Source: Sphingomonadales bacterium (GTDB taxonomy: Bacteria; Pseudomonadota; Alphaproteobacteria; Sphingomonadales; G965227345). From it: a stretch of 64,000 bases of DNA. A program made the translations under genes and the position numbers. A model generated the notes under the pieces. The model did no database searches and was not told the DNA's origin. It saw nothing but the letters and a program-made list of their open reading frames with translations. Location of the stretch: positions 1,141,351 to 1,205,350 of the forward strand of contig OZ245755.1 in NCBI GenBank assembly GCA_965227345.1, read 5' to 3'. Each line of letters opens with the position of its first letter. Position 1 is the stretch's first letter. This document shows, piece after piece, positions 21,355 through 54,647 of the stretch.

Positions 21355-21392
21355 TTTCTAATATCCTGTCCTGGAATGTCTATATTATGGCT

Positions 21393-22601: not shown

Positions 22602-22651
22602 TTCTCATCCTTCTTTAAAATGTGTTCTGTAAAAACTTGTCAGTCAACAAC

Positions 22652-24442
22652 CTAGAAAGCGCTCTCTTCCAAAGACATCAGAATATCCGCACCGGCCTCA
22701 ACCCTTGCCAGACATGTCGTTGTCTGGGGCATTTCGTAGGCCATAAAGAAGCGCGCAGTCTTCAGTTTTGTTTCATAAAAATCCGGGTCGGACGGGTTAT
22801 TGGCCAGCGCATCCTGTGCTGTCCGTGCCATCTGGCCCCATATCCAGCCCAGTGTTACAAGAGCCATAAGGTTCAGGTAATTATGGGCAGCTGATCCTGC
22901 GTTATCTGGTGCGGTCATGGCATTGTTCATCAGCCACATGGTGGCCTGTTGCAACTGTCCCAGCCCCTTGCCCAGCGGCTTTGTAAATTCCGCCATCGCC
23001 TCGTCGTCCTTGTTCTCGTCGATAAATTTCTGCACTTCCTCAAAATAGGCACGCACCGCACGCCCGCCATTCATCGCCAGCTTGCGCCCGACAAGATCCA
23101 TGGCCTGAACGCCGTTGGTGCCCTCGTAAATCGGCGCGATACGCGCGTCACGCACAAACTGCTCCATACCATATTCCTGAACATACCCGTGCCCGCCAAA
23201 GCATTGCAGGGACAGATTACTGGCTTCAAAGCCCTTGTCTGTCATGTAGGATTTGATGACCGGGGTCAGCAACGCCACAAGATCTTCAGCCTTTTCCCGG
23301 ACTGCGTCATCTTCATGCTTGCCGTAAATATCTATCTGCACGCCCGTCCACAGCGCAAGGGCACGCGCACCTTCGTTAAAGGCTTTCGAGGTCAGCAGCA
23401 TGCGGCGCACGTCAGGGTGCACGATAATCGGGTCCGCAGCGCCATCCGTGTTTTTAGCCCCGGTCAGGGACCTGCCCTGCAACCGGTCACGGGCATATTC
23501 GACAGCGTTCTGGTAAGCCACTTCGGAAACACCCAGCCCCTGCAGCCCGACGCCCAAACGGGCTTCGTTCATCATGGTGAACATGGCACGCATGCCCTTG
23601 TGTTCCTCTCCGATCAGATAGCCTGTTGCGTTATCATAGTTCAGCACACAGGTTGCATTGGAATGGATCCCCATCTTTTCTTCAATGGACCCGCAAGCAA
23701 CACCGTTGCGATCCCCCAGGCTGCCATCGCCCTTGGCCAGAAACTTGGGCACAATAAACAGGCTCACTCCCTTAATGCCTTCCGGCCCGCCAGGAATTTT
23801 TGCCAGCACCAGATGGATAATATTTTCAGTCAGGTCATGCTCACCGGCCGAGATAAATATCTTGGTCCCTGAAATCTTGTACGATCCGTCTGCCTGCAGC
23901 TCTGCCTTTGTCCGCATCAGGCCCAGATCCGTTCCACAATGCGGCTCGGTCAGGTTCATGGTCCCCGACCATTTGCCGCTGATCATATTGGGCAGATAGG
24001 TATTCTTCTGCTCATCTGTGCCATGGGCTTCAATAGCTTCCGTCGCGCCTTTGGTCAGGCCCGGATACATGGCAAAGCCCCAGTTGGCGGCAATCATCAT
24101 TTCCGATATTGCCAGCCCGAGCGCCTGAGGCAGCCCCTGCCCGCCATATTCCGGTGACGCCGTTAGCCCCTGCCAGCCGCCTTCGGCATAAGCGTTATAG
24201 GCTTCCTTGAAGCCTTTGGGCGTTGTCACAACGCCATTCGCCAGCTGACACCCTTCCTGATCACCCGACTGATTGATCGGCTGAAGAATATTTTCTGTCA
24301 GCTTTGCGCCTTCTTCCAGAATAGCGTCAATCAGGTCCGGGCTGGCGTCTTCATACCCGGCCAGATTATTATATTTTTGAAGATCAAGCAGTTCATGCAG
24401 GACAAACTTCAGATCACGGACAGGGGCTTTATAACTGGGCAT
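22652..24442 (-). CDS. long acyl-CoA dehydrogenase (596 aa, with extra C-terminal domain)
   Basis: ACAD core motifs LTEPHCGTDL and IYEGTNGVQAMDL, plus a ~150-aa C-terminal extension typical of FadE-like and DUF1974-type enzymes. Confidence 0.85.
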   Translation of the reverse strand: MPSYKAPVRDLKFVLHELLDLQKYNNLAGYEDASPDLIDAILEEGAKLTENILQPINQSGDQEGCQLANGVVTTPKGFKEAYNAYAEGGWQGLTASPEYGGQGLPQALGLAISEMMIAANWGFAMYPGLTKGATEAIEAHGTDEQKNTYLPNMISGKWSGTMNLTEPHCGTDLGLMRTKAELQADGSYKISGTKIFISAGEHDLTENIIHLVLAKIPGGPEGIKGVSLFIVPKFLAKGDGSLGDRNGVACGSIEEKMGIHSNATCVLNYDNATGYLIGEEHKGMRAMFTMMNEARLGVGLQGLGVSEVAYQNAVEYARDRLQGRSLTGAKNTDGAADPIIVHPDVRRMLLTSKAFNEGARALALWTGVQIDIYGKHEDDAVREKAEDLVALLTPVIKSYMTDKGFEASNLSLQCFGGHGYVQEYGMEQFVRDARIAPIYEGTNGVQAMDLVGRKLAMNGGRAVRAYFEEVQKFIDENKDDEAMAEFTKPLGKGLGQLQQATMWLMNNAMTAPDNAGSAAHNYLNLMALVTLGWIWGQMARTAQDALANNPSDPDFYETKLKTARFFMAYEMPQTTTCLARVEAGADILMSLEESAF

Positions 24443-24507
24443 TTAGACATCCTTTGAATGGAGGGCTATTGATGATGTTCACAACAATCAGATTTTTAAT
24501 TAAAACC

Positions 24508-24987
24508 TTACGCACGCTTTGATCGGTACGGGTCTAATGGTACATTGGCTTCCTGAAGCTTTGCTTCAAGCGTTTGACAAAAAGAGTCGAGTTCTGCGAT
24601 GGTCGCATCCAGGTCCTCGCGCTGCCTGATCAGTTTCTCCTGACGTTCGCGGCATTTTACCAGAGTCTTCTGTCTTTGTTCAACGCGACCATCACCTTTG
24701 TCATAAAGGTCAATGAGTTCGCGGACCTCAGCCAGACTGAAGCCAACACTGCGACCCCGCAATATCCACGCCAGCCGTACCCTGTCCCGGGCAGAGTATA
24801 CCCGATTCTGCCCCTGACGCGAAGGGCTGATCAGGCCGTTATCCTCATAAAACCGGATCGTACGGGGCGTAACTTCAAATTCTGATGCCAGGGCAGAAAT
24901 CGTATATGTTTCTTCAGCCATTTCTCTGAACTTCTTTTGATTCCCGGTTATCATTTCAGCTCGCAGCACAACATCTGTATTCGGCAT
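24508..24987 (-). CDS. MerR-family transcriptional regulator (LiuR-like), first gene of the acyl-CoA dehydrogenase-fadA-fadB operon
   Basis: HTH YTISALASEFEVTPRTIRFYEDNGLISP followed by a coiled-coil dimerisation helix. The true start may be an internal ATG (24954 or 24921). Confidence 0.8.
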   Translation of the reverse strand: MPNTDVVLRAEMITGNQKKFREMAEETYTISALASEFEVTPRTIRFYEDNGLISPSRQGQNRVYSARDRVRLAWILRGRSVGFSLAEVRELIDLYDKGDGRVEQRQKTLVKCRERQEKLIRQREDLDATIAELDSFCQTLEAKLQEANVPLDPYRSKRA

Positions 24988-28005: not shown

Positions 28006-28275
28006 CTAGTGCACCGCGACCCGGCGCGGCTCTTCTTCATCAAACTCGAAATAGACGTTCATGGCGCTGCGAATTTCTTCCCAAAGTTCATACCCCTCGT
28101 CGTCGCCCAGCACACGCATGCGATCAAGCGCTGAATCAGCAAAAATCAGGGCCGTATCACCGTGACTGCGCAGCAAGTTGCGCGCGACCATATCGAAAAT
28201 CGGGCCGGGATCGAAGTCATCATATTCCATCAGGGCTCTTAACGCAGTGATGGCCTCTATGGCTGGGTCGGTCAT
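28006..28275 (-). CDS. small acidic hypothetical protein (89 aa)
   Basis: ORF with ordinary composition. No family recognised and no strong SD seen. Confidence 0.4.
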   Translation of the reverse strand: MTDPAIEAITALRALMEYDDFDPGPIFDMVARNLLRSHGDTALIFADSALDRMRVLGDDEGYELWEEIRSAMNVYFEFDEEEPRRVAVH

Positions 28276-28438: not shown

Positions 28439-29104
28439 CTAGTTCACCCTTAACAGATCAACCAGTTCGCCGACACCACTGCCCCGCGGCACGGTAACCA
28501 GTGGCAAGTCGGGCAGGAAGCGCCGAATGGTCTCGGCCGTTTCATCAATCGGTACCGGACTGGTTTCTGATTCCGTCACAACAATGGCCGCAATCACCAG
28601 CCCGTGGCGACGCATGGCCCGGGCCGTGGCAAGCGTATGACTGATGGTGCCCAGATAGGAACCGACCACCAGCAGGGATGGCAAGCCCAACGCGCCAATC
28701 CAGTCCGCCACAACATGCTTCTCATCCAAAGGCACAAAAGCCCCGCCCACACCCTCTATCAGCAACAGATCCTCGGGTCCCTGAGCACATTCCCGACAGA
28801 ATTGCAAAAGACCGGGATAATCCACCGACGTTTCTTCACGTCTTGCGGCCATATCCGGCGAAAGCGCCTGCTTGTAGCGCCAAGGTGAAATGCTGTCGAT
28901 CTGCGCCTGATCAAACGGTCTGCCTAGCGCCTGAATGATATTCGCTGTGTCGCTGGTCGCGGCCGAGCCTTCATCAAATCCGCTGATCAGGGGCTTGATA
29001 GCCCGCACCTTGCGCCCCCTTGTCAACGCCTCGCGTATCACGGCTGCAGTGATATAGGTCTTGCCAATATCTGTACCCGTAGAGGTTACAAAATAGCCTC
29101 GCAT
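28439..29104 (-). CDS. bioD: dethiobiotin synthase
   Basis: N-terminal P-loop FVTSTGTDIGKTY; 221 aa; starts 3 nt after the bioF stop. Confidence 0.85.
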   Translation of the reverse strand: MRGYFVTSTGTDIGKTYITAAVIREALTRGRKVRAIKPLISGFDEGSAATSDTANIIQALGRPFDQAQIDSISPWRYKQALSPDMAARREETSVDYPGLLQFCRECAQGPEDLLLIEGVGGAFVPLDEKHVVADWIGALGLPSLLVVGSYLGTISHTLATARAMRRHGLVIAAIVVTESETSPVPIDETAETIRRFLPDLPLVTVPRGSGVGELVDLLRVN

Positions 29105-29107
29105 TCT

Positions 29108-30271
29108 CTATCCCCCTAACGGTCTTATACCAAGTTTGCGCATGGCATCTGCAAGCCTGACAACATCTTCATCGCGGTGATTGGCCGTAAAAGTCGTCCG
29201 TAACCGCGCCGTGCCGTCTGGTACAGTCGGGGGGCGGATGGCCGAAATCAGAAACCCCTGATCCCGCAGTTTTAGCGACATCTGCATGGCCTTGTTTGCG
29301 TCGCCGACGATAATCGGCACGATGCAGGTCACGGGTTCCGGCAGATTCATTTCACGACAGAACAACCGGGCCTTTTCCACCGGCCTTTGTCGCAATGCCG
29401 GATCGCTTTCAATAATCGCAAGCGCGGCAATGCTGGCGGCAATCACAGCAGGCGGCAGACCGGTTGTGAATATCAGGCTGCGCGCCCTGTTGCGCATAAA
29501 ATCAATTACTTTTTTTGACGCACACAAATAGCCGCCGTAGCTGCCCACAGCCTTTGACAAGGTGCCCATCTGCAGGGGCACACGGGCTTTTTGGCCGTTG
29601 GTAAAGCTGCTGCCACGGCCATCGCCCAGAATACCGATACCATGAGCGTCATCCGTCATCAGCCAGGCGTCATACTTTTCGGCCAGTGGCACCAGTTCAT
29701 CCAGCGGTGCCAGATCACCATCCATGCTGAACACGCCGTCGGTCAACACCATGGCGCGGGGGTGGTTTCCACGATGATCCCGCAACAATGTTTCCAGATG
29801 CGCCATATCATTGTGGCGAAAAACATGACAGCTGCCATGTGATAACCGGGCACCTGCAAAAATGCAGGCATGTGCCAGCTCATCGACAAAAACAACATCC
29901 TGTTCGCTGATCAGGGCGGGGATGATGCCAATATTCGCCATATAGCCGCTACCAAAGACAAGCGCGTCCTCAGCACCCTTCAATTTGGCGAGACGACTTT
30001 CCAGCTCGCTGTAGAGCGGATGACTGCCTGTCACAAGACGCGAAGCACCGGCACCGGCACCATAGCGATCAATGGCCGCCTGTGCGCCTGCCTTCACATC
30101 GGGATGCTGGCTCAGGTTCAGGTAATCATTGCAGCAAAAGGAAATCAGATGCGCATCGCCACGATCCGCCGACCCGTCTTCATGGCGGTCGGTCGTCACA
30201 ATTTCGCGGTACAGACCTTCGTCTGTCAGCTTATCCAGCTTTGCCGTGACAAATTTTTCCAGTGAGTCCAT
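29108..30271 (-). CDS. bioF: 8-amino-7-oxononanoate synthase
   Basis: Alpha-oxoamine synthase family: CCNDYLNLSQHP, DDAHGIG, and the PLP-Lys context GTLSKAVGSYGG. Confidence 0.85.
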   Translation of the reverse strand: MDSLEKFVTAKLDKLTDEGLYREIVTTDRHEDGSADRGDAHLISFCCNDYLNLSQHPDVKAGAQAAIDRYGAGAGASRLVTGSHPLYSELESRLAKLKGAEDALVFGSGYMANIGIIPALISEQDVVFVDELAHACIFAGARLSHGSCHVFRHNDMAHLETLLRDHRGNHPRAMVLTDGVFSMDGDLAPLDELVPLAEKYDAWLMTDDAHGIGILGDGRGSSFTNGQKARVPLQMGTLSKAVGSYGGYLCASKKVIDFMRNRARSLIFTTGLPPAVIAASIAALAIIESDPALRQRPVEKARLFCREMNLPEPVTCIVPIIVGDANKAMQMSLKLRDQGFLISAIRPPTVPDGTARLRTTFTANHRDEDVVRLADAMRKLGIRPLGG

Positions 30272-30383
30272 GAAATATTAAGTCTCTCGGGCCTATAAAC
30301 CCGCTGGTTGGAAACGGGCTGCATATTGGCAGGATCAGCAGTTCTGTCAACGACGCTTTTTGAAAAAGCAGTCCGCTTTTCGC

Positions 30384-30421
30384 CTTGACTTGGCAATTGC
30401 GGTCAGAGACTGTGCGGTCAA
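30384..30421 (+). promoter_or_regulatory. copy A of a duplicated promoter/operator-like element (CTTGACT-N15-GAGACTGTGCGGNCAA)
   Basis: CTTGACT at 30384-90, then 15 nt, then GAGACTGTGCGG at 30406-17, then TCAA. It ends 25 nt before the TTG start of the AsnB-like gene. It can be read as -35 CTTGAC, a 16-nt spacer and -10 GAGACT. Confidence 0.45.
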
Positions 30422-30446
30422 GCCACCGGGATCAGGAGAAAAAACA

Positions 30447-32171
30447 TTGGGCGCCTTTGCCATCATCCGCGGTAAAAAAAACCGGCAGCGGGATACGTTG
30501 GAAGAGAAAATCGCGTCATCCCTGCACAAGCAGGGATTTGCCGCGCCTGACCTTATCGATCATCCCCATGCGCTGGTGTTATTGTGCCCCAAAATGGTCT
30601 CGAGCGAGACGAACCTTGTGCGCCTTGATAATGGTGATTTTGCCTTTTACACCGGCACCCTGATATATAGGCATTTGACCGGCATGCCAGCCCTGAACGA
30701 GATTTTGGCCCTGCCGGGCAGCACATTGCCCGAGCGCGCCGACCTTGCCGGTTGCTTTACCCTTGTGGTCGCAAAAGGCAAAACAATCCATATTATGGTG
30801 GATCCGCTTGGCACATACAGGCTTTACCATCATGAAAATGACAAGGTCTGGTCAAGTTCATTTCTGGCTGTTGCCGCCACAGTAGACAAGCCCCGGATCA
30901 ATGACCATGAAGTCTATGAATATGTTTTTGACGGTGCGACCTATGGCACAAAAACCGTCCTGCAACAGGTCAGCATGCTTGCCCCCGATACCGCGGTCAG
31001 CCTGAACCGGGCCCTGACCAGAAAAACATTGCCATCCCTTTCCTCGCCATCCATGCCCGCAGACCGGGCCGGCATGACAAGCCATCATGTCGACCTGCTG
31101 CGCGACCTGTTCGGACGTACCGTCAAGGCGTTTGGTGGCAAGATAGATATGGCGCTGACCGCCGGATATGACAGCCGGCTGATGCTGGCACTATGCAGGG
31201 ACGCAGGCATAACACCGCGTCTTCATGTATACGGACCGCCGGATGACACTGATGTGAAGGTCGCACTTGCCATTGGCAAGGCAGAAGGTCTTGACGTTAA
31301 ACATGTCGACAAATCTATCAAAAAGCCCCTTGAAGCAGAAAGCTTCGCCGACATTGTGAAAGCCCAGTTTTATGCGTTTGACGGCTGCCCGCCAGACGGC
31401 GTATTGGGCAACGGTGCCGATCTGGCGACCCGGAGGGAGCGCTGCGAAGACAATTATCTGTCGCTGAACGGCGGCTGCGGCGAAATCTATCGGAACTTTT
31501 TTTACCTGCCTGATCGATCCTTCAGTGTGCGGGAAATTTTGTGGTCATTCTGGAGCCAGTTTGACCCCAAAAGCTGCAGAGACGGATTTGACGAAGATCA
31601 GTATATCTGCACACTTGCCCAAAAGGCCCTGACGGACCTGAATGGACATCACCAAACGCTGACACGGGCAGAGGTTGAATATCTGTATCCGGTTTTCCGT
31701 GGGCGCTACTGGACGGCACGCAATACGTGCGTCAATCTGCGCTTTGGCGACGCCGCAACGCCGTTCCTGGACGCCTCGCTGGTCAGGCCTGCGGCCGATA
31801 TTCCGATGCCAATCAAATATGCCGGTGCCTTTGAGGCCGCCCTTGTAGAGGCCATCAGCCCGGCACTTGCGGCCCATCCTTCAGATTATGGGCACAGCTT
31901 TGCCGACCCCCCCAATCTGAAACACAGATTCTCGGAATGTGCGACGCGCATTCGCCCCGCATTTCTCCGCAGGCTAACCTTTCGGTTGCGGAACCGGTAC
32001 CGCCCGGCACCCCTGCCCGAATATCTGACAGCCAAATTCACAGACAGGCTGTTTCCCGACGGCATCCGGTATATGGATCGGTATTTTCATCGGGATCAAA
32101 TTCACGACGCCGGACAGATGAATCGCATTCTGACACTCGAATATCTGTTCCAGACGGTTAAAGCAGAGTAG
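30447..32171 (+). CDS. asparagine-synthetase-family protein lacking the N-terminal catalytic Cys (paralog A)
   Basis: Start set to TTG 30447 (AGGAG SD 8 nt upstream) because paralog B starts at the equivalent TTG-GAFAIIR. AsnB-order motifs: GCFTLVV, DPLGTYRLYH, VWSSSFLA, PP-loop position LTAGYDSR, and C-terminal PFLDASLVRPAADIP. Confidence 0.7.
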   Translation: MGAFAIIRGKKNRQRDTLEEKIASSLHKQGFAAPDLIDHPHALVLLCPKMVSSETNLVRLDNGDFAFYTGTLIYRHLTGMPALNEILALPGSTLPERADLAGCFTLVVAKGKTIHIMVDPLGTYRLYHHENDKVWSSSFLAVAATVDKPRINDHEVYEYVFDGATYGTKTVLQQVSMLAPDTAVSLNRALTRKTLPSLSSPSMPADRAGMTSHHVDLLRDLFGRTVKAFGGKIDMALTAGYDSRLMLALCRDAGITPRLHVYGPPDDTDVKVALAIGKAEGLDVKHVDKSIKKPLEAESFADIVKAQFYAFDGCPPDGVLGNGADLATRRERCEDNYLSLNGGCGEIYRNFFYLPDRSFSVREILWSFWSQFDPKSCRDGFDEDQYICTLAQKALTDLNGHHQTLTRAEVEYLYPVFRGRYWTARNTCVNLRFGDAATPFLDASLVRPAADIPMPIKYAGAFEAALVEAISPALAAHPSDYGHSFADPPNLKHRFSECATRIRPAFLRRLTFRLRNRYRPAPLPEYLTAKFTDRLFPDGIRYMDRYFHRDQIHDAGQMNRILTLEYLFQTVKAE

Positions 32172-32188
32172 TATAAACGCCATTTCAA

Positions 32189-32226
32189 CTTGACTCAGGG
32201 CGCTGTCTCGGAGACTGTGCGGCCAA
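32189..32226 (+). promoter_or_regulatory. copy B of the duplicated promoter/operator-like element
   Basis: CTTGACT at 32189-95, then 15 nt, then GAGACTGTGCGG at 32211-22, then CCAA. It begins 18 nt after the paralog-A stop and ends 32 nt before the bioB ATG. Confidence 0.45.
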
Positions 32227-32258
32227 ATACAAGTCAACAGGATGGAGACTTTGGATAG

Positions 32259-33272
32259 ATGACTGTCGCCCAGACGATACCCGCAAACGGAACCCCCGTT
32301 GATACACCTGCAGATCTGGCAAACGATGGCCTGCGCCATGACTGGACGAGACCGGAAATTGAAGCACTGTTTGATCTGCCCTTCAATGATCTGATGTTTC
32401 AGGCCCAAAGTCTGCATCGCCAGAATTTCGACGCCAACAAGGTGCAGCTGAGCCAGCTGATCTCTATCAAGACCGGCGGCTGCCCGGAAGACTGCAAATA
32501 TTGTCCGCAATCTTCGCATTTTGAAACATCTGTTGATGCTGCCAAGCTGATGGAAGTTGACACCGTACTGGCCGACGCGGCCAAGGCGCAAGCCGCCGGG
32601 GCCAGTCGTTATTGTATGGGGGCCGCCTGGCGGTCGCCCAAGGATCGGGACATGGAAAAAGTCTGCGCCATGATCGAAGGCGTCAAGGCCATGGGCATGG
32701 AAACATGTGTAACGCTGGGCATGCTGAATGATTCCCAGGCGAAGCGGCTAAAGCAATCCGGGCTTGATTATTACAATCACAACATCGACACGTCGGAAGA
32801 GTTTTACGGCGAGATCATCACCACCCGTTGTTATGAAGATCGACTGGAAACCCTGTCTCATGTGCGTGACGCGGGCATTAATGTCTGCTGTGGCGGCATT
32901 GTCGGTATGGGCGAAGGACGCGGCGACCGTGCCGGTATGCTTGAAACACTGGCCAATATGCCCAAGCATCCCGAAAGCGTGCCCATTAATCTGCTGGTAC
33001 AGGTAGAAGGCACACCGATGTTCGGACAGGACGCGCTAGATCCGTTTGAATTCGTCCGCACCATTGCTGTCGCCCGCATCATGATGCCGCATAGCTTTGT
33101 TCGCCTGTCCGCCGGACGGGAACATATGAGCGACGAATTGCAGGCGCTCACCTTCCTTGCCGGTGCCAATTCGATTTTTTACGGCGAACAATTGCTGACC
33201 ACGCCCAACCCTGCCGAAAACAGCGACATCGCCCTGTTTGACCGCCTTGGGATTGCGCCGCTCAAGCTATAG
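32259..33272 (+). CDS. bioB: biotin synthase
   Basis: Radical-SAM motif [22 protein letters not shown], and GGIVGMGE. Confidence 0.95.
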
Positions 33273-33281
33273 GCGTTATTT

Positions 33282-34571
33282 ATGGCCGACGACATCAAGC
33301 AGGTCCCTGACTGGTACACAGACGGCTACCAACATATTTGGCTGCCCTATACCCAAATGCAGACAGCTCCCGATGCCCTGCCCGTGGCCTCTACCGAGGG
33401 CGTTCGCATCCAACTGACCGACGGCCAGGAACTGATTGATGGCATTGCCAGCTGGTGGACCGCCTGCCACGGCTATAATCATCCCCATATCCGGAAAGCC
33501 ATGATGTCACAGATCGACACCATGTCCCATGTTATGCTGGGCGGGCTGGTGCATGAACCGGCTGTAAGGCTTGCCAAACGGTTGGCCGACATTCTCCCGG
33601 GTGACCTGAACCATGTATTCTTTTCCGAATCCGGGTCTGTGTCAGTCGAAATCGCCATGAAAATGGCAGTACAATACTGGCTGAACAAGGGCGAGCATGG
33701 CCATACACGCTTTGTCAGTTTCCGGTCCGGCTATCACGGTGACACATCCGCCGCCATGTCGGTCTGTGATCCGGAAGACGGCATGCACAAACATTTTGCC
33801 GGCTATCTGACAGAGCAATTCATTGTCGATTTTCCCCGCACGCCTGGCGCGCTGGATATTTTTGACAATTTACTAAAAGACAAGCGGGGCGAGATTGCGG
33901 CCGTCATGGTCGAACCTCTGGTGCAGGGGGCGGGGGGGATGAAAATGCATCATCCGCACGAACTGGCCGCCATGGCTGAAATTTGCAAGCGCCATGACGT
34001 GTTGCTGATTGCCGACGAAATTTTTACGGGCTTCGGGCGCACCGGCAGCATGTTCGCGTGTGAACAGGCGGGCATTGTGCCGGATATCATGTGTCTGGGC
34101 AAAGCGCTAACCGGCGGAGTTGCCCCGATGGCAGCAACCGTTGCCACTGACCGGGTTTACGATGCATTTCTGTCTGACGACCCCTCCAGGGCCTTTATGC
34201 ACGGGCCCACCTTCATGGCCAACCCCCTGACATGTGCGGCTGCAAATGCCTCACTTGACCTGTTTGAAAATGAACCGCGACTGGAGCAGGTCAGACGGAT
34301 CGAGGGCCATTTAAGCCAGTCGATGGAACAATTCCGCGACCTGCCGGGCGTTCTGGATGTGCGGGTGAAAGGTGCCGTCGGGGCCATTGAGCTTGACCGG
34401 ATTGTGGACGCAACCTGGATGAAAGATCGTTTTCGTGAAGAAGGCGTCTGGATCAGACCCGTTGGGAACACTATATATCTGACACCATCATTTACGATTG
34501 AATCTGCTGATCTGGCCAGACTGACCAATGCTATCGGCACTATATTGCAGGAAAGACCATGGATCAGATAA
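33282..34571 (+). CDS. bioA: adenosylmethionine-8-amino-7-oxononanoate aminotransferase
   Basis: Class-III aminotransferase: SWWTACHGYNHP, LIADEIFTGFGRTG, and the PLP-Lys context CLGKALTGG. Confidence 0.9.
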   Translation: MADDIKQVPDWYTDGYQHIWLPYTQMQTAPDALPVASTEGVRIQLTDGQELIDGIASWWTACHGYNHPHIRKAMMSQIDTMSHVMLGGLVHEPAVRLAKRLADILPGDLNHVFFSESGSVSVEIAMKMAVQYWLNKGEHGHTRFVSFRSGYHGDTSAAMSVCDPEDGMHKHFAGYLTEQFIVDFPRTPGALDIFDNLLKDKRGEIAAVMVEPLVQGAGGMKMHHPHELAAMAEICKRHDVLLIADEIFTGFGRTGSMFACEQAGIVPDIMCLGKALTGGVAPMAATVATDRVYDAFLSDDPSRAFMHGPTFMANPLTCAAANASLDLFENEPRLEQVRRIEGHLSQSMEQFRDLPGVLDVRVKGAVGAIELDRIVDATWMKDRFREEGVWIRPVGNTIYLTPSFTIESADLARLTNAIGTILQERPWIR

Positions 34572-36355
34572 CCAACCCTTATACAGCCCGTCTTGAGAAC
34601 CTGCGCAGTGAAATGACCCGTCTGGGATTGTCCGGATATGTCGTTGCCCATACGGACGAGCACCGCAGCGAATATACCCCCGATTATGCCCAGCGGCTGG
34701 CCTGGCTGACCGGCTTTACCGGCTCTGCCGGGCAAGCCGTAGTGCTTGCCGACAAAGCCGCCATGTTTGTTGACGGGCGCTATACACTCCAGGTTCAGGC
34801 ACAGGTTGATGCGGCGAACTACACCTTTCTGCATCTGACCGAAAACCCGCCGCAGGAATGGATCGTTGAAAATGCCCGTGCAGGCGACCGTATTGGCTTT
34901 GACCCCTGGCTTCATACAATCAACTGGGTGAATGATCTGCGGGAAGGTCTTGCGACCAGGGGGGCCGAGCTGGTCGTCGTCGACACCAACCCCGTTGATG
35001 TTATCTGGCACGATCAACCCTCCCCTTCCACACGTCCGGCCATACCGCATGATATTCAATTTGCAGGCAAAAGTTCAGCCGACAAGCGCCAGGAGATTGC
35101 CGAAAACATAAAAAAGGCCGGGGCTGATGCCGCTGTATTTACGGCGCTTGATTCCATTGCCTGGCTATTCAACATTCGCGGCACTGACGTTGACCACACG
35201 CCTCTGGTGATCTCTTTTGCCATTCTGCACGCTGACGCTTCTGCCGATCTGTTTATCGATCCGAAGAAAATCACAGATGAGGTGCGAAGCCATCTGGGTG
35301 ATCAGGTTCGCCTGCACCCCAAATCTGATTTCATGACCGGATTGAATGCCCTTGGCCCAACCAAAAAAACCGTGCTTGTAGACCCCGTCAGTGCCTCGGC
35401 TGCCGTATTCAACATTCTTGAAAGCGCAGGCGTCATCATCAAGCGCCAGACGGACCTGTGCCAGTTGCCAAAAGCTGTAAAGAACGCCACAGAGGTCGAA
35501 GGCACGCGGGCAGCCCATCTGCGTGATGGCGCGGCATTAACACGGTTTCTGGCCTTTATGGCCGAACACGGGCCTAAAGGCACGCTTGATGAAGTCGCCG
35601 CGTCAGATCAGCTGGAAACTTTCCGTCGGGAAACCAACCAGTTAAAAGACCTGAGCTTTGACAGCATTTCAGGAGCAGGGCCCAATGGTGCCATTGTCCA
35701 TTATCGCGCCATGCCGGAGAGCGCCCGCAAGATTGAAAGCGGCATACTTTATTTAATCGACAGTGGCGGCCAGTATCTGGACGGGACAACCGATGTCACC
35801 CGCACCATCGCCATTGGCACCCCCGGCGCCGAAGAAAAAGACCGGTTCACAAGGGTATTGAAAGGACATATCGCCATTGCCACCGCCCGGTTCCCCAAGG
35901 GAACATCGGGCGCACAGCTTGATGCACTGGCGCGCATGCCACTGTGGCAGGCCGGCCTGAACTACGATCATGGCACAGGCCACGGTGTTGGCAGCTATCT
36001 GGGCGTTCACGAGGGCCCGCAAGGCATTGCCAAATCATATACGACAACACCGCTGCAACCCGGCATGATCGTCTCTAACGAACCCGGCTACTACAAGACG
36101 GGCCATTACGGCATCCGGATTGAAAATCTTGTTGTTGTTCAGGAAGCCGACAAGAGCAAGGGCGAGATCCCCGTTTTCGCGTTTGAAACATTGACGCTTG
36201 CACCTATAGACACAAATCTGATTGATCGGTCCCTGCTAACCGACGACGAAGCCGACTGGCTGAACACTTATCACGCCCGTGTAGCAGAGGTTATCACCCC
36301 GCTTGTCGATGCGAAAACAGCTGCATGGCTGGCACAGGCAACGAAGCCCGTTTAG
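34559..36355 (+). CDS. pepP: Xaa-Pro aminopeptidase (aminopeptidase P, M24B)
   Basis: Pita-bread metal ligands in DSGGQYLDGTTDVTRT, HGTGHGVG, SNEPGYY and IRIENL. The ATG overlaps the bioA stop by 13 nt. Confidence 0.85.
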   Translation: MDQITNPYTARLENLRSEMTRLGLSGYVVAHTDEHRSEYTPDYAQRLAWLTGFTGSAGQAVVLADKAAMFVDGRYTLQVQAQVDAANYTFLHLTENPPQEWIVENARAGDRIGFDPWLHTINWVNDLREGLATRGAELVVVDTNPVDVIWHDQPSPSTRPAIPHDIQFAGKSSADKRQEIAENIKKAGADAAVFTALDSIAWLFNIRGTDVDHTPLVISFAILHADASADLFIDPKKITDEVRSHLGDQVRLHPKSDFMTGLNALGPTKKTVLVDPVSASAAVFNILESAGVIIKRQTDLCQLPKAVKNATEVEGTRAAHLRDGAALTRFLAFMAEHGPKGTLDEVAASDQLETFRRETNQLKDLSFDSISGAGPNGAIVHYRAMPESARKIESGILYLIDSGGQYLDGTTDVTRTIAIGTPGAEEKDRFTRVLKGHIAIATARFPKGTSGAQLDALARMPLWQAGLNYDHGTGHGVGSYLGVHEGPQGIAKSYTTTPLQPGMIVSNEPGYYKTGHYGIRIENLVVVQEADKSKGEIPVFAFETLTLAPIDTNLIDRSLLTDDEADWLNTYHARVAEVITPLVDAKTAAWLAQATKPV

Positions 36356-36424
36356 CCGTTTGTCACACTTTCCAGACCCGCCCGTCTTGGTATTCGTACA
36401 GAATATGAAGCGCGGGAGGAAAGT

Positions 36425-38176
36425 TTGGGCGCATTTGCCATTATTCGCTATCCAAAAGGGGTGCGCCGCAATCTTGCCGAACAAAAAGTCAGGGCGTCAT
36501 TTGCCCGGCAGGGATTTCCCGCGCTGCGGTCCATTACCCGTGAACATCTGCTGATCTTGCATTGCCCCAAGATATTGGGCGGGGCAACTCAGGTTATTCA
36601 CAGGGAAGACGGCAGCTTTGCGCTTTATACAGGCACATTGTTTTACAAAAACCTGACAGGCCGCAAGGCGCTTGAGGCGTTGCTCCTGCTGGACCCGCCC
36701 AAATATCCCCCGCCGGGCGATCTGAGCGGATGCTTTGCCCTGATCATAAGCACGCCCGCCTACGGGTTGCGGCTGATGCGCGACCCGATGGACATCTACA
36801 AGATTTACAAGGATCAGCAGGGCCGGGTCTGGAGCAGCTCTTTCCTCGCCCTTCTGGAAAGTATCAGCAACCCCTCTGTCAACCATCAGTCCGCCTGTGA
36901 ATATGTGTTCACCGGTGCGGTCTTTGGCACAGATACGCTGATCGAACAGATATCAACGACAGAGGCTCTGACCCTGTATCAAATTGGCACCAATGTCACC
37001 CCCTGCACCCGTCACAAGCTGATGATATTTCCACCGCCGCCACGCCCGCTGCAGGATGTCGTCTCTGAGAACCTGAGATTATTACGCCGCCGGATCAGCA
37101 TGATCAGGGACACCTGTCAGAACGACATCGATATCGAGCTCATGCCGGGGCCGGATACGCGACTGCTGCTCGCGCTGATGCTGGAGGACGACGCCATACC
37201 GCGCCTGCATTACAAGTCGCCTTTCGAGCCAACCCATCCGACACACCAGTTGAATACCCTTCTTCATGCGGCGGGCGATCGCGCCTGTGCCATCAGCGAC
37301 GACGATATCATAACAGGTCCCGGCAGCCCCACGGGTGAAGACCTGGCTTTGGATCTGGAAAAGACATTCCAGCGCCACGACGGCTGCCCCACAAGTGGTA
37401 TCATGGAGTTGGCAACGGGCACCCGTGAACCTGACCTGCGGTTTAAAAACAATTTTCTAAGCCTGACAGCCGATGGCGGGGGTATCTACCGGAAAATGAT
37501 GGACCTGTCCTCCGGCCCGGCGAAGCTGAAAAATGTGCTGGCCCATTTTCAGCGCAATGTCGACCCCGCCGCCTGTACCCACCGGTTCTCGGAACAGAAA
37601 TACATTCAAAATCTGGAACAGAAGGTTGCCAGAATTTTCCCCCGGGCAAGCCACCTGCACCCGGCCCAGACGGAATATCTTTATGCCGGCTTTCACGGAC
37701 GGCACTGGATTGGCCATAATGTCAGTCTGGACCAGCGTTTCGGCAATGCCTTGCCGCTGTATCTGGATGAAACACTTGTCCGGTCCGCGCTGAAAATCCC
37801 GATTGAGATGAAGAAAGACGGGCGGATTCAGCTTGAAATGATCCGGGCCGTGGAACGCGAATTTCCCGAGATAGAGCTGCCAGCACACCATATACCTCCG
37901 GCCCCGGACCGCTCGTTCAGCCAGCGCCTGAAGGCCTGGCTATCGCGCGCAACACCGCTGGTGGCCCGGCGATTATCCGCCCGGGTTCACAATCGGCTGT
38001 CGCCACCGGATCTTCCGGCTCACCTTTCTGCCGACAACTGGAACAGGGCCCTGCCCGAAGGCACGCCCCATATTGATCATTTGTTTCACAAGGATAAATT
38101 GTGTGATCCGGCGCAACTTGATCGGGCCCTGACCCTTGAATATCTTTGCCAGTCCCGGCGTGATATCCGGTTTTAA
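36425..38176 (+). CDS. asparagine-synthetase-family protein lacking the N-terminal catalytic Cys (paralog B, more degenerate PP-loop)
   Basis: TTG start with GGAGG 5 nt upstream. GAFAIIR, GCFALII, DPMDIYKIYK, VWSSSFLA, PP-loop position LMPGPDTR, and LYLDETLVRSALKIP. 39 of the first 86 aligned residues are identical to paralog A by hand alignment. Confidence 0.7.
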   Translation: MGAFAIIRYPKGVRRNLAEQKVRASFARQGFPALRSITREHLLILHCPKILGGATQVIHREDGSFALYTGTLFYKNLTGRKALEALLLLDPPKYPPPGDLSGCFALIISTPAYGLRLMRDPMDIYKIYKDQQGRVWSSSFLALLESISNPSVNHQSACEYVFTGAVFGTDTLIEQISTTEALTLYQIGTNVTPCTRHKLMIFPPPPRPLQDVVSENLRLLRRRISMIRDTCQNDIDIELMPGPDTRLLLALMLEDDAIPRLHYKSPFEPTHPTHQLNTLLHAAGDRACAISDDDIITGPGSPTGEDLALDLEKTFQRHDGCPTSGIMELATGTREPDLRFKNNFLSLTADGGGIYRKMMDLSSGPAKLKNVLAHFQRNVDPAACTHRFSEQKYIQNLEQKVARIFPRASHLHPAQTEYLYAGFHGRHWIGHNVSLDQRFGNALPLYLDETLVRSALKIPIEMKKDGRIQLEMIRAVEREFPEIELPAHHIPPAPDRSFSQRLKAWLSRATPLVARRLSARVHNRLSPPDLPAHLSADNWNRALPEGTPHIDHLFHKDKLCDPAQLDRALTLEYLCQSRRDIRF

Positions 38177-38315
38177 TGAAAGCGGGCAGACATCGCCCCC
38201 GGCATATCAATGACCCGGATCATCACTTTGTTCCCAACTGCTGCCTGATGGGGATAGCCAACACCGGTACGATCTGCTAATCAGACATCACCTGCACATA
38301 CATGCCTGCAGAAAT

Positions 38316-38392
38316 GCGCCCGTAGCTCAGCAGGATAGAGCACCAGATTCCTAATCTGGGGGTCACAGGTTCGAATCCTGTCGGGCGCACCA
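38316..38392 (+). tRNA. tRNA-Arg (anticodon CCT), CCA encoded
   Basis: Cloverleaf read by hand: GCGCCCG/TA/GCTC-AGCAGGATA-GAGC/A/CCAGA-TTCCTAA-TCTGG/GGGTC/ACAGG-TTCGAAT-CCTGT/CGGGCGC/A/CCA. Confidence 0.9.
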
Positions 38393-38753
38393 ATAATATC
38401 AATAGGTTATACAGAACTCTCTGTCCGCCGAAGCCTCCGAATTAACATACAGGGTAACACTGGGGTAACAAAGAGCAATCAAAGTTCCCGTTACAAGGGT
38501 AACGGCGCTCTGTCCACCGTGCATATTAAACAGAACGGCTATTCCTGTCGAAATACCAATGACGATCCAGCTACGAACAAGCGCTCAAACATTTGATACG
38601 TAGACTAAAATAGGGAAACTTGGCTTGAGGCCCTGCCTGCGAGGATGGAGAGGTCAGCGCCTTTTCCGCTAGACAAACATAAATTTAGTTCGTAGTGCTA
38701 AAATATGGGATCAGGGAAACTGGCCCTATTTATTCAGTATTTTGGTAAATGTC

Positions 38754-39827
38754 ATGAGTCACAAAGGCCCCATAAGTACAGAAAGCTCGCCAAGTCTAAA
38801 ACCTGCTCTTGGTATTACTGGTGATTTAAGGTGGGTTGAGCAAACTTTTCCTTCTGCGCCCCACCTAACGGCAGCCGATTCAGAAAAATTACGCACCGGA
38901 CATCCCTATGGGCCTGCCTTCCATTCCCGCCAAGAGGTCGTCCAGGGACACGGAACAGGATATCGTGACTACGCGAGCTTTTCAAATGACCTCAGGGTTC
39001 TTTTTTGCGACTTTGAATACGATCAGGAAGCTCGGGGAAAGGTTGACGGCCTGGACATGCTGAAATTCCATTTCAAGATTTCAGGCAAAAATCTCATCCG
39101 CTTTGAAGGGCAGCAAGAATTTGTCCTGTCGTCCGGGAAAAGCGTCGTAGCACTACACCCCCAAGGCATGGTCAAAGATGACTGGTATGCAGCAAAAGCG
39201 CACGAAACATCACTGACGCTTTGCTGTAGCCCTGCCCAAATGATCCGCTCGCTTCACCTTGAGCCAACAGATTTGCCTTCAGTACTGGCGCGTTATATAG
39301 AAGACGGAATCCCCGATTTCTTTTGTCAAACACTACCACTGACGACAAGGATGACGAGGGTCATTGAGGAGATGCTCAACCCGCCATATGGACGTCATTT
39401 GCGTCACATTCACTCTGAGGCGCGTTCACTAGACCTCGTTTGCATGATGCTCGACTTGTTGAATAATGACAATGTGCCGCGCAGTCCTTTGTTCAGGCTT
39501 CGAAATAGTGACATCGAAGCTTTGCATGCAGTGAAGGAATATTTACGTAATGAGTATGCTGATCCGCCCAGAATTCCTTTACTAGGACGTCAATTTGGTC
39601 TTAATAGAACAAAATTGACTGAAGGCTTTAAGAATCTCTTTGGCGAAACTGTTTTTGAATATATCCAGCGCCTGCGCATGGAGCGTGCTCGTATTCTTCT
39701 GACAGAGTCGGATTGGTCCATTTCCAGAATTGCAGAGACTGTAGGCTACGAACGGCAAAGCAGTTTTTCATCTGCTTTTCGAACCAAATATGGTCGCACG
39801 CCGATGGACATTCGCCGGAAGACCTAA
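38754..39827 (+). CDS. AraC-family transcriptional regulator (cassette 1)
   Basis: C-terminal double HTH (LGRQFGLNRTKLTEGFKNLFGETVFEYIQRLRMERARILL...ISRIAETVGYERQSSFSSAFRTKYGRTP). ATG 38754 preferred over TTG 38742. Confidence 0.85.
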   Translation: MSHKGPISTESSPSLKPALGITGDLRWVEQTFPSAPHLTAADSEKLRTGHPYGPAFHSRQEVVQGHGTGYRDYASFSNDLRVLFCDFEYDQEARGKVDGLDMLKFHFKISGKNLIRFEGQQEFVLSSGKSVVALHPQGMVKDDWYAAKAHETSLTLCCSPAQMIRSLHLEPTDLPSVLARYIEDGIPDFFCQTLPLTTRMTRVIEEMLNPPYGRHLRHIHSEARSLDLVCMMLDLLNNDNVPRSPLFRLRNSDIEALHAVKEYLRNEYADPPRIPLLGRQFGLNRTKLTEGFKNLFGETVFEYIQRLRMERARILLTESDWSISRIAETVGYERQSSFSSAFRTKYGRTPMDIRRKT

Positions 39828-39954
39828 CCTCAGCGCCTGTTGGTATTACAATTCTGTTAAATTCGAAAAAAATCCTGTTAGTCGCAAAAGTCCCCTTCCC
39901 CATTGTTTGCTATGGTCCTGCCATTGACAAAAATATCAACTGGAGGGAATTTAA

Positions 39955-42126
39955 ATGCGCTGTAACGGAAAATCCAAAGCAATAAAGGCTCATCTTCTTT
40001 CTGCAACAATACTTGGTTTGGGCTTTACGACGTCCCTGCCCAACGCCACATGGGCCGCATCAGATTTTGTAGCCGAAGAAATTACGATAACAGCACGCCT
40101 CAGGGAAGAATCTCTTCAAGATGTCCCTGTTGCCGTCTCGGCTTTTTCAGGCCTCCAACTCGAAAAACAAAATATAGGGGACGCACGAGATCTCATCGGA
40201 CGGGTTCCGGGCCTCTTTTTCAGTCAGAACCAATCATTTGGTCCTTCCAAGACCGAAACTTACATTGTTATGCGAGGTGTCGGAGCCACGTCAGCGATTG
40301 AACCGGCAGTTGCTGTGTTTCTGGATGGCGTCTACATGCCGAAAATGATGTTTGATCTGGATTTTCTGGACCTTCAGCGGATGGAGGTCCTTCGCGGGCC
40401 TCAAGGCGCATTATTCGGCCGGAACACACAAGGAGGCGCACTCAACCTTGTCACACGCAAGCCAGACGACGAGCTGCTGGCCAGAACGGCAATAGAAGTT
40501 GATGATTTTAATACGCTGAAAATAAAGGGCTCGGTTTCTGGTCCCCTCAAGGAAGGCAAACTTTTTGTCGGCATGTCAGGCCAGTTCGAACGAACAGACG
40601 GTTATATTGATAATGCCACCCTTGGGATCAATCAGGATGATGCCGAGAGAGCCGCATTTCGCACGACCTTGAGGGCCTTGCCCAGCGATGCACTGGAAGT
40701 CATTCTGGTCGGTGGCTTTGGCAAAACCTGGGGAGGACAGCTGGGGGCTGGTGTACCAGAAGGCTCAAATGACTATGTTGTTTTTGACAATGATGTACGG
40801 GATATAAAAGATGACATTTACAATGCATCCCTGACCGTTAACTGGGATCTTGAGTTTGCCACACTGACCTCTATTACAGGCGGCGTTAAAACAAACATCG
40901 AAGCCTACTGGGATTGGGATGGCGGCGCTGACGCGAGCGGCAATTTTCAGCTTCAGAAAATCAAACAATCCCAGGTTTCGGAAGAATTGCGGCTAGCCTC
41001 AAACCCTGTTAACGAAAAATTTGACTGGTTAGCCGGGGCATATATTTTCAGATCTGTATATGACCAAGACAGGGATTTTGGCCTCGTTGACGGTACCGGC
41101 TCAACCTTCCCACCCTTATTTAATGCGAACAATGTTGTGGATGAACAGGCCCGCTTCGTCAATAAAGGGATCGCGCTTTTCGGTCAGGCAACCTACCGCC
41201 CCATGCAGCAGCTCGACCTTACCGTGGGGGCACGATATTCCCGCGAGAAAGTCAACTCGCGCCAATATGGTGAAGTAACGGTAATTGGGCTTGGTTCGAG
41301 CGAGGTTTTTGATGTGAGAGCAGATGATACTTACTCTCGTCTGTCACCCATGGCGTCTGTCGCTTACCGATGGTCTGATGACTTCATGACATATGCCACC
41401 GTCGCAGAAGGCTTCAAATCCGGAGGGTTCCAGAAATACCCTGCTAGCGAACTGGCCGCAGGCATACCTTTTGACAATGAAATTTCGCTTAATTACGAGC
41501 TCGGATTCAAGAGCAACTTCCTGGAAAACCGTGTCACCCTCAATGCCGCCGCATACATTATCAAGGTCAAAAAACAGCAGCTTGGCACGATTCGTGAAAT
41601 CAATAACATTCCGGTAGAATCGATCGCGAACGTTGGCAAGTCCACGAACAAGGGTTTTGAAGTCGAAGCTGTGGTGCGGCCTGCAACCGGCCTGACCATG
41701 AGTGGAGCGCTATCCTATGTCGATGCTCAATTTGATGAATTTCTGAATGAAAGTACGGGACGCGACCGGGCAGGAGAACGCATTCCCTATGTTCCTAAAT
41801 GGACTGGGTCTGCCCTGATCGAATACCGTCATGCAGTCGGTGAAAGTGCCAATCTGACGTGGGGAATTGAATACCGGTACGTCGGCGCCCACCTGGCAGG
41901 AAATGGAACTGCACCTTTTGATCCCTTCTTCGATATAAAGTCTTATGATGTTTTTGACGCCAATGTTCGACTGGAAATGGAAAAGTGGGAATTTGTGCTA
42001 TTTGCCGACAATCTCTTCGACGAATTTAACGTGATGAAAAAATGGGAAGCACCTTTTCAGGCCCAGGTCTTCGATACCCCAACAGCACCAAGGCGCGTTG
42101 GGTTAAGGGTTATCTATAACTGGTAG
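39955..42126 (+). CDS. TonB-dependent receptor (cassette 1)
   Basis: Signal peptide; plug domain EEITITARLREESLQDVPVAVSAF...RVPGL...MRGV; 22-strand-sized barrel; C-terminus RVGLRVIYNW. Confidence 0.9.
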   Translation: MRCNGKSKAIKAHLLSATILGLGFTTSLPNATWAASDFVAEEITITARLREESLQDVPVAVSAFSGLQLEKQNIGDARDLIGRVPGLFFSQNQSFGPSKTETYIVMRGVGATSAIEPAVAVFLDGVYMPKMMFDLDFLDLQRMEVLRGPQGALFGRNTQGGALNLVTRKPDDELLARTAIEVDDFNTLKIKGSVSGPLKEGKLFVGMSGQFERTDGYIDNATLGINQDDAERAAFRTTLRALPSDALEVILVGGFGKTWGGQLGAGVPEGSNDYVVFDNDVRDIKDDIYNASLTVNWDLEFATLTSITGGVKTNIEAYWDWDGGADASGNFQLQKIKQSQVSEELRLASNPVNEKFDWLAGAYIFRSVYDQDRDFGLVDGTGSTFPPLFNANNVVDEQARFVNKGIALFGQATYRPMQQLDLTVGARYSREKVNSRQYGEVTVIGLGSSEVFDVRADDTYSRLSPMASVAYRWSDDFMTYATVAEGFKSGGFQKYPASELAAGIPFDNEISLNYELGFKSNFLENRVTLNAAAYIIKVKKQQLGTIREINNIPVESIANVGKSTNKGFEVEAVVRPATGLTMSGALSYVDAQFDEFLNESTGRDRAGERIPYVPKWTGSALIEYRHAVGESANLTWGIEYRYVGAHLAGNGTAPFDPFFDIKSYDVFDANVRLEMEKWEFVLFADNLFDEFNVMKKWEAPFQAQVFDTPTAPRRVGLRVIYNW

Positions 42127-42133
42127 TTTCGAT

Positions 42134-42168
42134 CGCCATGATGCGGCACAGCTTTCCGCATCATGGCG
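42134..42168 (+). terminator. perfect 13-bp stem-loop between the receptor and GMC genes (attenuator, terminator or RNA-stability element)
   Basis: CGCCATGATGCGG(42134-46), loop CACAGCTTT, CCGCATCATGGCG(42156-68). No U-run follows. Confidence 0.3.
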
Positions 42169-42216
42169 GACTTCTCTGATCCATATCATTATAGCGAAAA
42201 GTGAAAGAAAAACATT

Positions 42217-43806: not shown

Positions 43807-43838
43807 ACATTAATCCAAAAACATAAGGAAATGTTGAG

Positions 43839-45341: not shown

Positions 45342-45351
45342 GGTAAATTCC

Positions 45352-49167: not shown

Positions 49168-49181
49168 TTCAAATCTCGCTT

Positions 49182-50543: not shown

Positions 50544-50638
50544 GGCTCTGCCTGCGTTCTTCTACCAAAACATGCCTTGTAAAACCGCGCGATGCGTCGT
50601 GGTTGCACTCAATTGAACAACCACGACACACCGTTTCG

Positions 50639-52957: not shown

Positions 52958-53101
52958 CTCGCGCTCCTTCCATTTATTTTGATTGTGACAAAAAAGCCAA
53001 ATACAAGCTCTCTATCGCTAATACTTTCTAGCATTTAGGTGAAAACCAAAATTATGCAGAAAGCACTCGTTGCTTTGCCAAAGGCCCAGCTTTGGCAAAA
53101 T

Positions 53102-54619: not shown

Positions 54620-54647
54620 ATAATAATTACTCCATAAAACTGTCTTG

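Follow-up and report, generated by a model that had tools for sequence, protein, structure and literature searches.

Two cysteine-less homologs of asparagine synthetase B (AsnB) bracket the genes bioB, bioA, and pepP in a stretch of DNA from a Sphingomonadales bacterium (GenBank assembly GCA_965227345.1, contig OZ245755.1, forward-strand positions 1,141,351 to 1,205,350). The whole stretch of 64 kb is referred to here as the window, and the region analyzed in detail spans window positions 28439 to 38176. The two proteins, designated paralog A (574 aa; 30447..32171, plus strand) and paralog B (583 aa; 36425..38176, plus strand), belong to one clade within an uncharacterized family of ~575-aa proteins in the AsnB superfamily for which Pfam and NCBIfam have no model. 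We consider it reasonably probable that A is an ATP-dependent amide-forming ligase with B as a noncatalytic partner, and that the pair is coexpressed with the biotin genes by virtue of its position and is not a general enzyme of the pimelate arm of biotin synthesis. In the window, this cysteine-less family of the AsnB superfamily is found at an unusual, lineage-specific position.

The genes bioD (dethiobiotin synthase; 28439..29104; TIGR00347, 117.6 bits versus a cutoff of 83.3; PF13500) and bioF (8-amino-7-oxononanoate synthase; 29108..30271; TIGR00858, 450.9 bits versus a cutoff of 426) lie on the minus strand and are divergent from A, bioB, bioA, a pepP-like gene, and B on the plus strand. 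The bioB gene (biotin synthase; 32259..33272) scored 412 bits with TIGR00433 (cutoff, 225), and bioA (S-adenosylmethionine:7-keto-8-aminopelargonate aminotransferase; 33282..34571) scored 600.8 bits with NF004624 and 558.7 bits with TIGR00508; the scores of all four bio genes are at the equivalog level of NCBIfam. The pepP-like gene (34559..36355) encodes an M24 peptidase of the aminopeptidase P (Xaa-Pro aminopeptidase) type with the Pfam domains Creatinase_N, Creatinase_N_2, Peptidase_M24, and Peptidase_M24_C, and its first 13 nt are shared with the 3' end of bioA. The gaps between A and bioB (87 nt) and between pepP and B (69 nt) contain no predicted intrinsic terminator, in scans for sigma-70 promoters and terminators that performed no better than on shuffled sequences. 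Both paralogs start at TTG behind AGGAG/GGAGG and are translated as MGAFAIIR. These TTG codons, rather than the start of a longer open reading frame (ORF) at 30360, are the true starts, because the N terminus MGAF is found throughout the family; the full MGAFAIIR is confined to the A/B clade in an alignment of 49 family members. A and B are identical at 39 of the first 86 positions, and at 34% of 585 columns over their full length (E = 1e-102). This arrangement of bio genes bracketed by two AsnB-like paralogs had been described in an earlier note on the same DNA, and we reproduced its coordinates for all ORFs and every other sequence-level statement in it.

The assignment of A and B to the AsnB type could not be made with Pfam, where neither protein gave a match at an E value below 10 and the thresholds of PF00733 and PF13537 were not reached. 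Matches of A in NCBIfam were all below threshold, namely the macrolactam cyclase model NF033561 (E = 3.8e-5 over residues 99 to 228; 22.5 bits versus a cutoff of 300) and asn_synth_AEB, TIGR01536 (3.3e-4; 19.8 bits versus a cutoff of 267). No NCBIfam model, including TIGR01536, matched B. A phmmer search of PDB sequences with A found nothing, and a profile of the 49 members gave marginal matches to carbapenam synthetase (CarA), TsnB9, QueC, and asparagine synthetase (ASNS), with CarA as the best at an E value of 0.055.

Structure prediction bore out the AsnB-type class that had been proposed from the sequence. The AlphaFold2 model of A has a mean predicted local distance difference test (pLDDT) score of 94.1 and a predicted template modeling (TM) score of 0.93, and that of B (pLDDT, 85.6) has the same fold. 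With A, Foldseek matched TsnB9 (E = 1.6e-17; TM score of 0.65 over the full length), CarA (2e-13), beta-lactam synthetase (5.6e-13), human ASNS (3.4e-12), and Escherichia coli AsnB (3.5e-11), and the matches cover both domains. The list of matches for B was the same, with CarA and beta-lactam synthetase at about 2e-11. Both models matched the structures 1ct9, 6gq3, and 9b6c with E values of 1e-9 to 3e-12, and all matches of A and B to TsnB9, CarA, beta-lactam synthetase, and AsnB/ASNS had E values between 1e-17 and 1e-9. When the family was aligned by hhalign with a canonical XrtA-type AsnB (TIGR03108, 982 bits), the PP-loops coincided (87% probability; E = 4e-6) and the family motif NGGGGE lined up with SGDGGDE of AsnB.

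Family members thus consist of an N-terminal domain of the N-terminal nucleophile (Ntn) type, in which the nucleophile is lost, and a C-terminal PP-loop ATP-pyrophosphatase domain. Gly2 occupies the position of the cysteine nucleophile and is nearly invariant, being conserved in at least 90% of the family. Class II amidotransferases require an N-terminal cysteine. Glutamine hydrolysis by the A/B family is therefore excluded, as the earlier note had concluded for the two paralogs. Searching all 1.84 billion representatives with HMMER recovered 824 representative clusters (50% identity) at an E value of 1e-30 or lower. With B as the query, only 5 proteins were obtained in a word-indexed search, and a scan of metagenome contigs yielded no relatives. 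In the exosortase and biotin contexts, we found no literature specific to this family.

The two paralogs differ in how much of the family pattern they retain, and the earlier observation that B is the more degenerate of the two was confirmed in several ways. Among the 109 columns of the family alignment with at least 90% conservation, A keeps the conserved residue in 102 and B in 66. The PP-loop reads SGGYDS in 41 of 49 family members and TGGYDS in the nearest relatives of A; A itself has TAGYDS, a change of glycine to alanine that is unique in the alignment, and B has MPGPDT ((M/K)PGPDT when its ortholog is included), so that the PP-loop is lost. The second glycine-rich motif, NGGGGE in the family, is NGGCGE in A and TADGGG in B and its ortholog. 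This ortholog, 86% identical to B, lies on a contig of a closer relative (L006), and the pair has a ratio of nonsynonymous to synonymous substitution rates (dN/dS) of 0.163 over 580 codons with a dS of 0.45. The corresponding ratios are 0.078 for the adjacent pepP fragment and 0.119 for bioF compared with a relative described below (L168). B is thus under purifying selection, and the reading frames of both paralogs are intact. A is probably catalytically competent, and B is probably noncatalytic yet functional. In a neighbor-joining tree, B forms a long branch that is sister to A together with its 55% identical homologs (P0002 to P0004). The pair is unlikely to have arisen by recent tandem duplication alone, given that A and B are only 34% identical and A is 55% identical to homologs elsewhere, and it is also disfavored by relatives with BioF proteins 75 to 78% identical to that of the window that have no A.

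The bio locus of relatives shows what the two paralogs were added to. The nearest relatives of BioF are encoded on two short contigs (L168, 78% identity; L169, 75%) and in Govanella unica (L170, 65%) and an Emcibacter sp. (L171, 61%). The window, Govanella, and Emcibacter share the gene order (YceI)-FadB-thiolase-ACAD-MerR-TauE-Alph_Pro_TM-DsbD_TM-small ORF-bioD-bioF, divergent from bioB-bioA-pepP. In Govanella and Emcibacter, bioF and bioB are only ~200 bp apart, pepP is followed by a pyridoxal phosphate (PLP) decarboxylase or a LysR regulator, and both A and B are missing from the locus. No A separates bioF from the divergent bioB in L168 and L169, and these contigs end before the position of B. 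Only L006, the closer relative (pepP, 90% identity), keeps the order pepP-B. Since syntenic relatives carry the bio locus without them, A and B are apparently lineage-specific additions restricted to a narrow lineage. A tRNA-Arg(CCU) gene (38316..38392, plus strand) is located 140 nt 3' of B, and the gene order shared with Govanella and Emcibacter breaks off somewhere between pepP and this gene; L170 and L171 contain no tRNA gene. The G+C content is 0.56 before the tRNA gene and 0.48 beyond it, and this part of the window (38000 to 40000) may mark the border of an integrated island or a hotspot of rearrangement.

In the window, in L170 (5775 to 7550), and in L171 (5700 to 7481), the bioB-bioA operon closes with pepP. 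The overlap with bioA is found in the window and in Govanella, whereas 32 nt separate the two genes in Emcibacter. None of 80 metagenomic loci with close relatives of BioB, which we collected as a reverse survey, has pepP, and we know of no biotin role for an M24 peptidase of the aminopeptidase P type. Judging from the shared gene order, pepP is an ancestral member of the bio operon in this lineage.

The intergenic regions of the bio locus contain an element that had been read as a duplicated promoter in front of A and bioB and taken as support for their co-regulation. One copy precedes A (30385..30421, plus strand; TTGACT-N15-GAGACTGTGCGGTCAA) and the other precedes bioB (32190..32226, plus strand; TTGACT-N15-GAGACTGTGCGGCCAA). 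The common form is TTGACT-N15-GAGACTGTGCGGYCAA, and the local alignment score of 28 exceeds the maximum of 24 obtained in 2,000 shuffles, which upholds the duplication. In the four relatives, the element also precedes bioB; it reads CTTGACTTGATCCCTTGTCTCGAAGACTGTGCCGGACA in L168, and the sequences in L169, L170, and L171 are similar. Because it is present before bioB in relatives, it is taken as the native promoter and leader of bioB in this lineage, and the insertion of A appears to have brought a second copy with it. This copy makes coexpression of A with the bio genes likely, although a duplicative insertion would leave the same trace, and a segmental duplication as the origin of the copy is possible. 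The copy before bioB, in a promoter region that is also conserved in the bioF/bioB spacers of L168 and L169, holds a perfect palindrome, GTCTC-G-GAGAC (32203 to 32216), which could be an operator for some biotin regulator. No site matching the BioR operator TTATMKATAA was found in the bio intergenic regions, and an Rfam search of the whole window detected tRNA only, with no riboswitch. On the bioF side, a putative promoter (30320..30352, minus strand) consists of TTGACA, a 17-nt spacer, and AATATG; this element (GCATATTGGCAGG...CTGTCAA) is kept in the bioF/bioB spacers of L168 and L169 and is weaker in L170.

We surveyed the surroundings of the family in other genomes, taking one genome per species. 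Among 359 relatives, the best 80 loci were examined over 10 kb on either side by tblastn for the bio genes and pepP, and bioB, bioA, bioF, bioD, or pepP was near a family member in none of them. Clustering of the neighbors divided the 80 loci into 43 of the exopolysaccharide (EPS) type, with GT4, canonical AsnB, Wzy-like ligase, hydrolase, and GNAT genes, 18 at atp/priA, and 19 with neither. In Spartinivicinus ruber (L001) and two alphaproteobacterial metagenome-assembled genomes (MAGs; L002 and L003), the family gene is located in an EPS locus directly after an acyl carrier protein (ACP) gene and two alpha/beta hydrolase genes (TIGR03101 and TIGR03100); in EPS loci of the family, these genes often form one operon with it. 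The vicinity also includes genes for an acyl-CoA ligase (776 bits with TIGR03098), a PLP decarboxylase (627 bits with TIGR03099), and a Wzy-like ligase (TIGR03097), and the models TIGR03097 to TIGR03101 are all named "exosortase A system-associated." The XrtA/PEP-CTERM gene cassette adjoins the homologs in L001, L002, and L003 and in 15 to 20 of the 80 loci. As for the AsnB-type amidotransferases near the homologs, the copy in L062 is a true TIGR03108 member (982 bits), whereas that in L002 is merely related to this model (265 bits versus a cutoff of 817). In Emcibacter and Kordiimonadaceae (about 18 loci, including L026, L031, L035 to L037, and L045 to L048), the family gene stands alone between atpHAGDC and priA, a housekeeping neighborhood that gives no functional clue. 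The nearest homologs of A, in L004 and L007, adjoin a phasin gene.

These results are consistent with the following explanation, in which two copies of the family would have joined an older, conserved locus, bioD-bioF divergent from bioB-bioA-pepP, in a narrow lineage. A would have been inserted into the spacer from which bioF and bioB diverge, along with the second copy of the bioB promoter, and B would have been inserted after pepP, at the break in synteny beside tRNA-Arg. Owing to this position, A and B are probably cotranscribed with the biotin genes. Beta-lactam and carbapenam synthetases are cysteine-less AsnB relatives that adenylate a carboxylate and form an amide. By analogy with them, members of the family, A among them, most likely adenylate a carboxylate with ATP and then form an amide with an amine from a source other than glutamine. 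B may serve as a structural or regulatory, noncatalytic partner of A. AsnB-type enzymes are oligomers. The earlier note had suggested a heteromer of A with a noncatalytic B, and the degeneracy of B and the constraint on it make this suggestion reasonable, while the partnership itself we infer. Because the family is mainly found in EPS loci of the XrtA/PEP-CTERM type, its usual substrate is probably an intermediate of polysaccharide decoration, which would be handled with ACP during EPS tailoring.

Several observations weigh against this explanation. No EPS, exosortase, or XrtA-cassette gene is present within the 64-kb window. The closest homologs of A (53 to 55% identity; L004, 1 to 1515; L007, 1 to 1356) lie outside EPS loci and directly 3' of a dicarboxylate-CoA ligase gene of the malonyl-CoA synthase type (NF005702; 772 and 721 bits, respectively, versus a cutoff of 558). 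The residue aligned to the acidic residue of SG(E/D)G in AsnB is missing from the family, and the chemistry may differ from that of AsnB. Random insertion does not predict that two paralogs share a single 8-kb bio locus and that A follows a retained copy of the bioB promoter; their placement could reflect selection for biotin-linked expression. A loss of A in the relatives, instead of a gain here, is also conceivable.

One alternative is that A and B are pure hitchhikers. Their substrate, for example an exopolysaccharide or a different amide-containing metabolite produced elsewhere in the genome, would then be unrelated to biotin, and they would owe their position to local duplication or rearrangement with no selected link to biotin expression. 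The context of the family, which is EPS or housekeeping everywhere else, agrees with this, as do the location of B, where synteny breaks next to a tRNA gene and the G+C content drops, and the earlier gain of the unrelated pepP by the operon. However, the duplicated promoter has been retained, and the paralogs are close together even though they are only 34% identical. This alternative differs from the explanation favored here solely by denying coexpression. We regard it as unlikely.

A second alternative follows the earlier note, which had proposed that the paralogs perform a new ATP-dependent step in biotin or pimelate metabolism. In such a lineage-specific recruitment, A, its partner B, and possibly the M24 hydrolase would carry out an ATP-dependent reaction that feeds or modifies the biotin pathway. 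A dicarboxylate (malonate, glutarate, or pimelate) could be activated, or its free carboxylate could be masked as an amide for extension by fatty acid synthesis and later hydrolyzed, in analogy with BioC/BioH. The position of both paralogs in the operon, with the short gaps of 87 and 69 nt free of predicted terminators, speaks for recruitment, as do the copy of the conserved bioB promoter carried by A, the purifying selection on B, and the ortholog of B that follows pepP in the second organism (L006). The malonyl-CoA synthase gene next to the closest homologs of A can be read in the same way. The statement that no known pimelate-arm gene lies in the window, on which the proposal was partly based, agrees with our domain scan: no BioC-, BioH-, BioZ-, BioW-, or BioI-type domain was found among nearly all nonnested ORFs of at least 150 aa, in a scan that left out shorter ORFs, nested ORFs, and ORFs of less than 150 aa in the 45 kb outside 24 to 43 kb.

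Recruitment is nevertheless quite unlikely, because the association with bio genes is not repeated elsewhere. It was absent from all 80 family loci, and none of the 80 metagenomic BioB loci contained a homolog of A or B. The earlier note had named a lack of synteny with bio genes in relatives among the findings that would refute its proposal, and such synteny was absent except for the order pepP-B in L006. In Emcibacter MAGs, the family gene is kept at atp/priA and has no linkage to bio genes, and pepP was already in the operon of relatives that have neither A nor B. Moreover, the bio loci of Govanella and Emcibacter contain no pimelate-arm genes either. Because these loci are equally devoid of such genes, their absence is ancestral to the locus; A and B did not arise to fill a gap, and the main argument for a pimelate role of the paralogs is removed. 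We know of no AsnB-type enzyme that forms thioesters, which also counts against recruitment. The biotin idea is still alive in the form of a lineage-specific role of A and B, but its chances are small.

Pimelate is known to be supplied by BioC/BioH with its variants, by BioZ, BioW, or BioI, and, in a route described more recently, by BioE; the titles and abstracts of the sources on these routes contain no mention of an AsnB-like or AsnB-fold enzyme (PMC7645780, PMC3494674, and PMC12704756). The most specific version of recruitment, in which the biotin operon captured the A/B pair, perhaps together with the M24 hydrolase, for a new early step that supplies BioF by ATP-dependent activation or amide masking of a short dicarboxylate (malonate, glutarate, or pimelate), is in our estimate very unlikely. 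If true, it would provide a nonorthologous alternative to BioC/BioH, BioZ, or BioW from an AsnB-fold enzyme with a pseudoenzyme partner, and the participation of an AsnB-fold enzyme in pimelate supply would be new. The remaining idea, that A and B are ordinary glutamine-dependent asparagine synthetases, as the label "asparagine synthase (glutamine-hydrolysing)" given to family members by some sources would have it, or decaying pseudogenes, is refuted by Gly2 in place of Cys1, the lack of any Pfam match, the 19.8 bits with TIGR01536 versus a cutoff of 267, the intact frames, the dN/dS of 0.16 over 580 codons of B, which rules out decay of this paralog, and the 102 of 109 conserved residues in A, and we give it a negligible probability.

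The family represents a sizeable branch of the AsnB superfamily that Pfam and NCBIfam models have missed, and its recurrent ACP, hydrolase, ligase, and decarboxylase neighbors in exosortase-type polysaccharide loci mark it as a likely amide-forming tailoring enzyme. The locus described here offers a clean example of a predicted active and degenerate paralog pair that, with a duplicated promoter, appears to have been inserted into a conserved vitamin operon. The absence of pimelate-arm genes characterizes the Emcibacter/Govanella-type bio locus as a whole, and the question of the pimelate source should not be pinned on A and B without genetic evidence.

Other features of the window lie on either side of the bio locus. 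A small conserved ORF of 89 aa (28006..28275, minus strand) is located 3' of bioD and has no Pfam or NCBIfam match. Orthologs of 93 to 97 aa follow bioD in L168 (2820 to 3104), L169 (2525 to 2809), L170 (11953 to 12234), and L171 (11962 to 12255), so that the ORF is kept next to bioD in all five loci with lengths of 89 to 97 aa and shared motifs including DP..YF and GD..G.E.WE. A MerR-regulated beta-oxidation operon (19198 to 24987, minus strand) encodes a 596-aa acyl-CoA dehydrogenase, a thiolase, and a FadB-type bifunctional enzyme, and it lies four genes from bioD in three genera (L170, 15368 to 21007; L171, 15204 to 20828). A 192-aa ORF (16842 to 17420, plus strand) had only subthreshold matches, over a stretch of ~75 residues, to Cas9d (43 bits versus 375) and IscB (39 bits versus 175). 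Downstream of B, a plus-strand cassette (39955 to 46443) contains genes for a TonB-dependent receptor, a GMC oxidoreductase, an aldehyde dehydrogenase, and a DUF2817 protein, and a similar minus-strand cassette (48076 to 56258) contains genes for a GMC oxidoreductase, an aldehyde dehydrogenase, a TonB-dependent receptor, a major facilitator superfamily (MFS) transporter, and a DUF2817 protein. An AraC-type regulator gene is located near each cassette (38742 to 39827 and 56521 to 57546). An IS3-family transposase fragment of 182 aa (58175 to 58723, plus strand) matches only the C-terminal half of the model.

The pimelate-arm enzymes BioC/BioH (and BioG, BioK, BioJ, and BioV), BioZ, BioW, BioI, and BioE belong to folds and families unrelated to A and B. 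The adjacency to bioF and bioB is the sole likeness. All hits of A and B are to models and structures of the AsnB type. Lasso-peptide and macrolactam cyclases (NF033535 and NF033561) form an amide after adenylation, and A matches NF033561 weakly, but neither a precursor peptide nor a partner protease was observed. TsnB9 hydroxyamidotransferase (PDB 7ylz) is the best structural match to A at 13 to 14% identity; it is described as an amidotransferase of a natural-product pathway, and there is no comparable cluster at the A/B locus. AsnB and the XrtA/PEP-CTERM amidotransferase (TIGR01536 and TIGR03108; PF13537 plus PF00733) have the same fold as A and B, and a canonical AsnB copy is the immediate neighbor of a family member in about 21 to 33 of the 80 loci. 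However, the family has glycine in place of Cys1 and NGGGGE in place of SG(E/D)G(S/G)DE, and A and B score far below the hidden Markov model cutoffs. Beta-lactam and carbapenam synthetases share with A and B the two-domain AsnB fold, the lack of an N-terminal cysteine, and the PP-loop synthetase domain. In contrast, identity to them is only 11 to 15%, and no beta-lactam or carbapenem cluster lies nearby: A and B are flanked by bio genes, and family members in other genomes adjoin EPS or atp/priA genes. A and B are also ~70 to 80 residues longer than these synthetases and have a C-terminal extension that is specific to the family.

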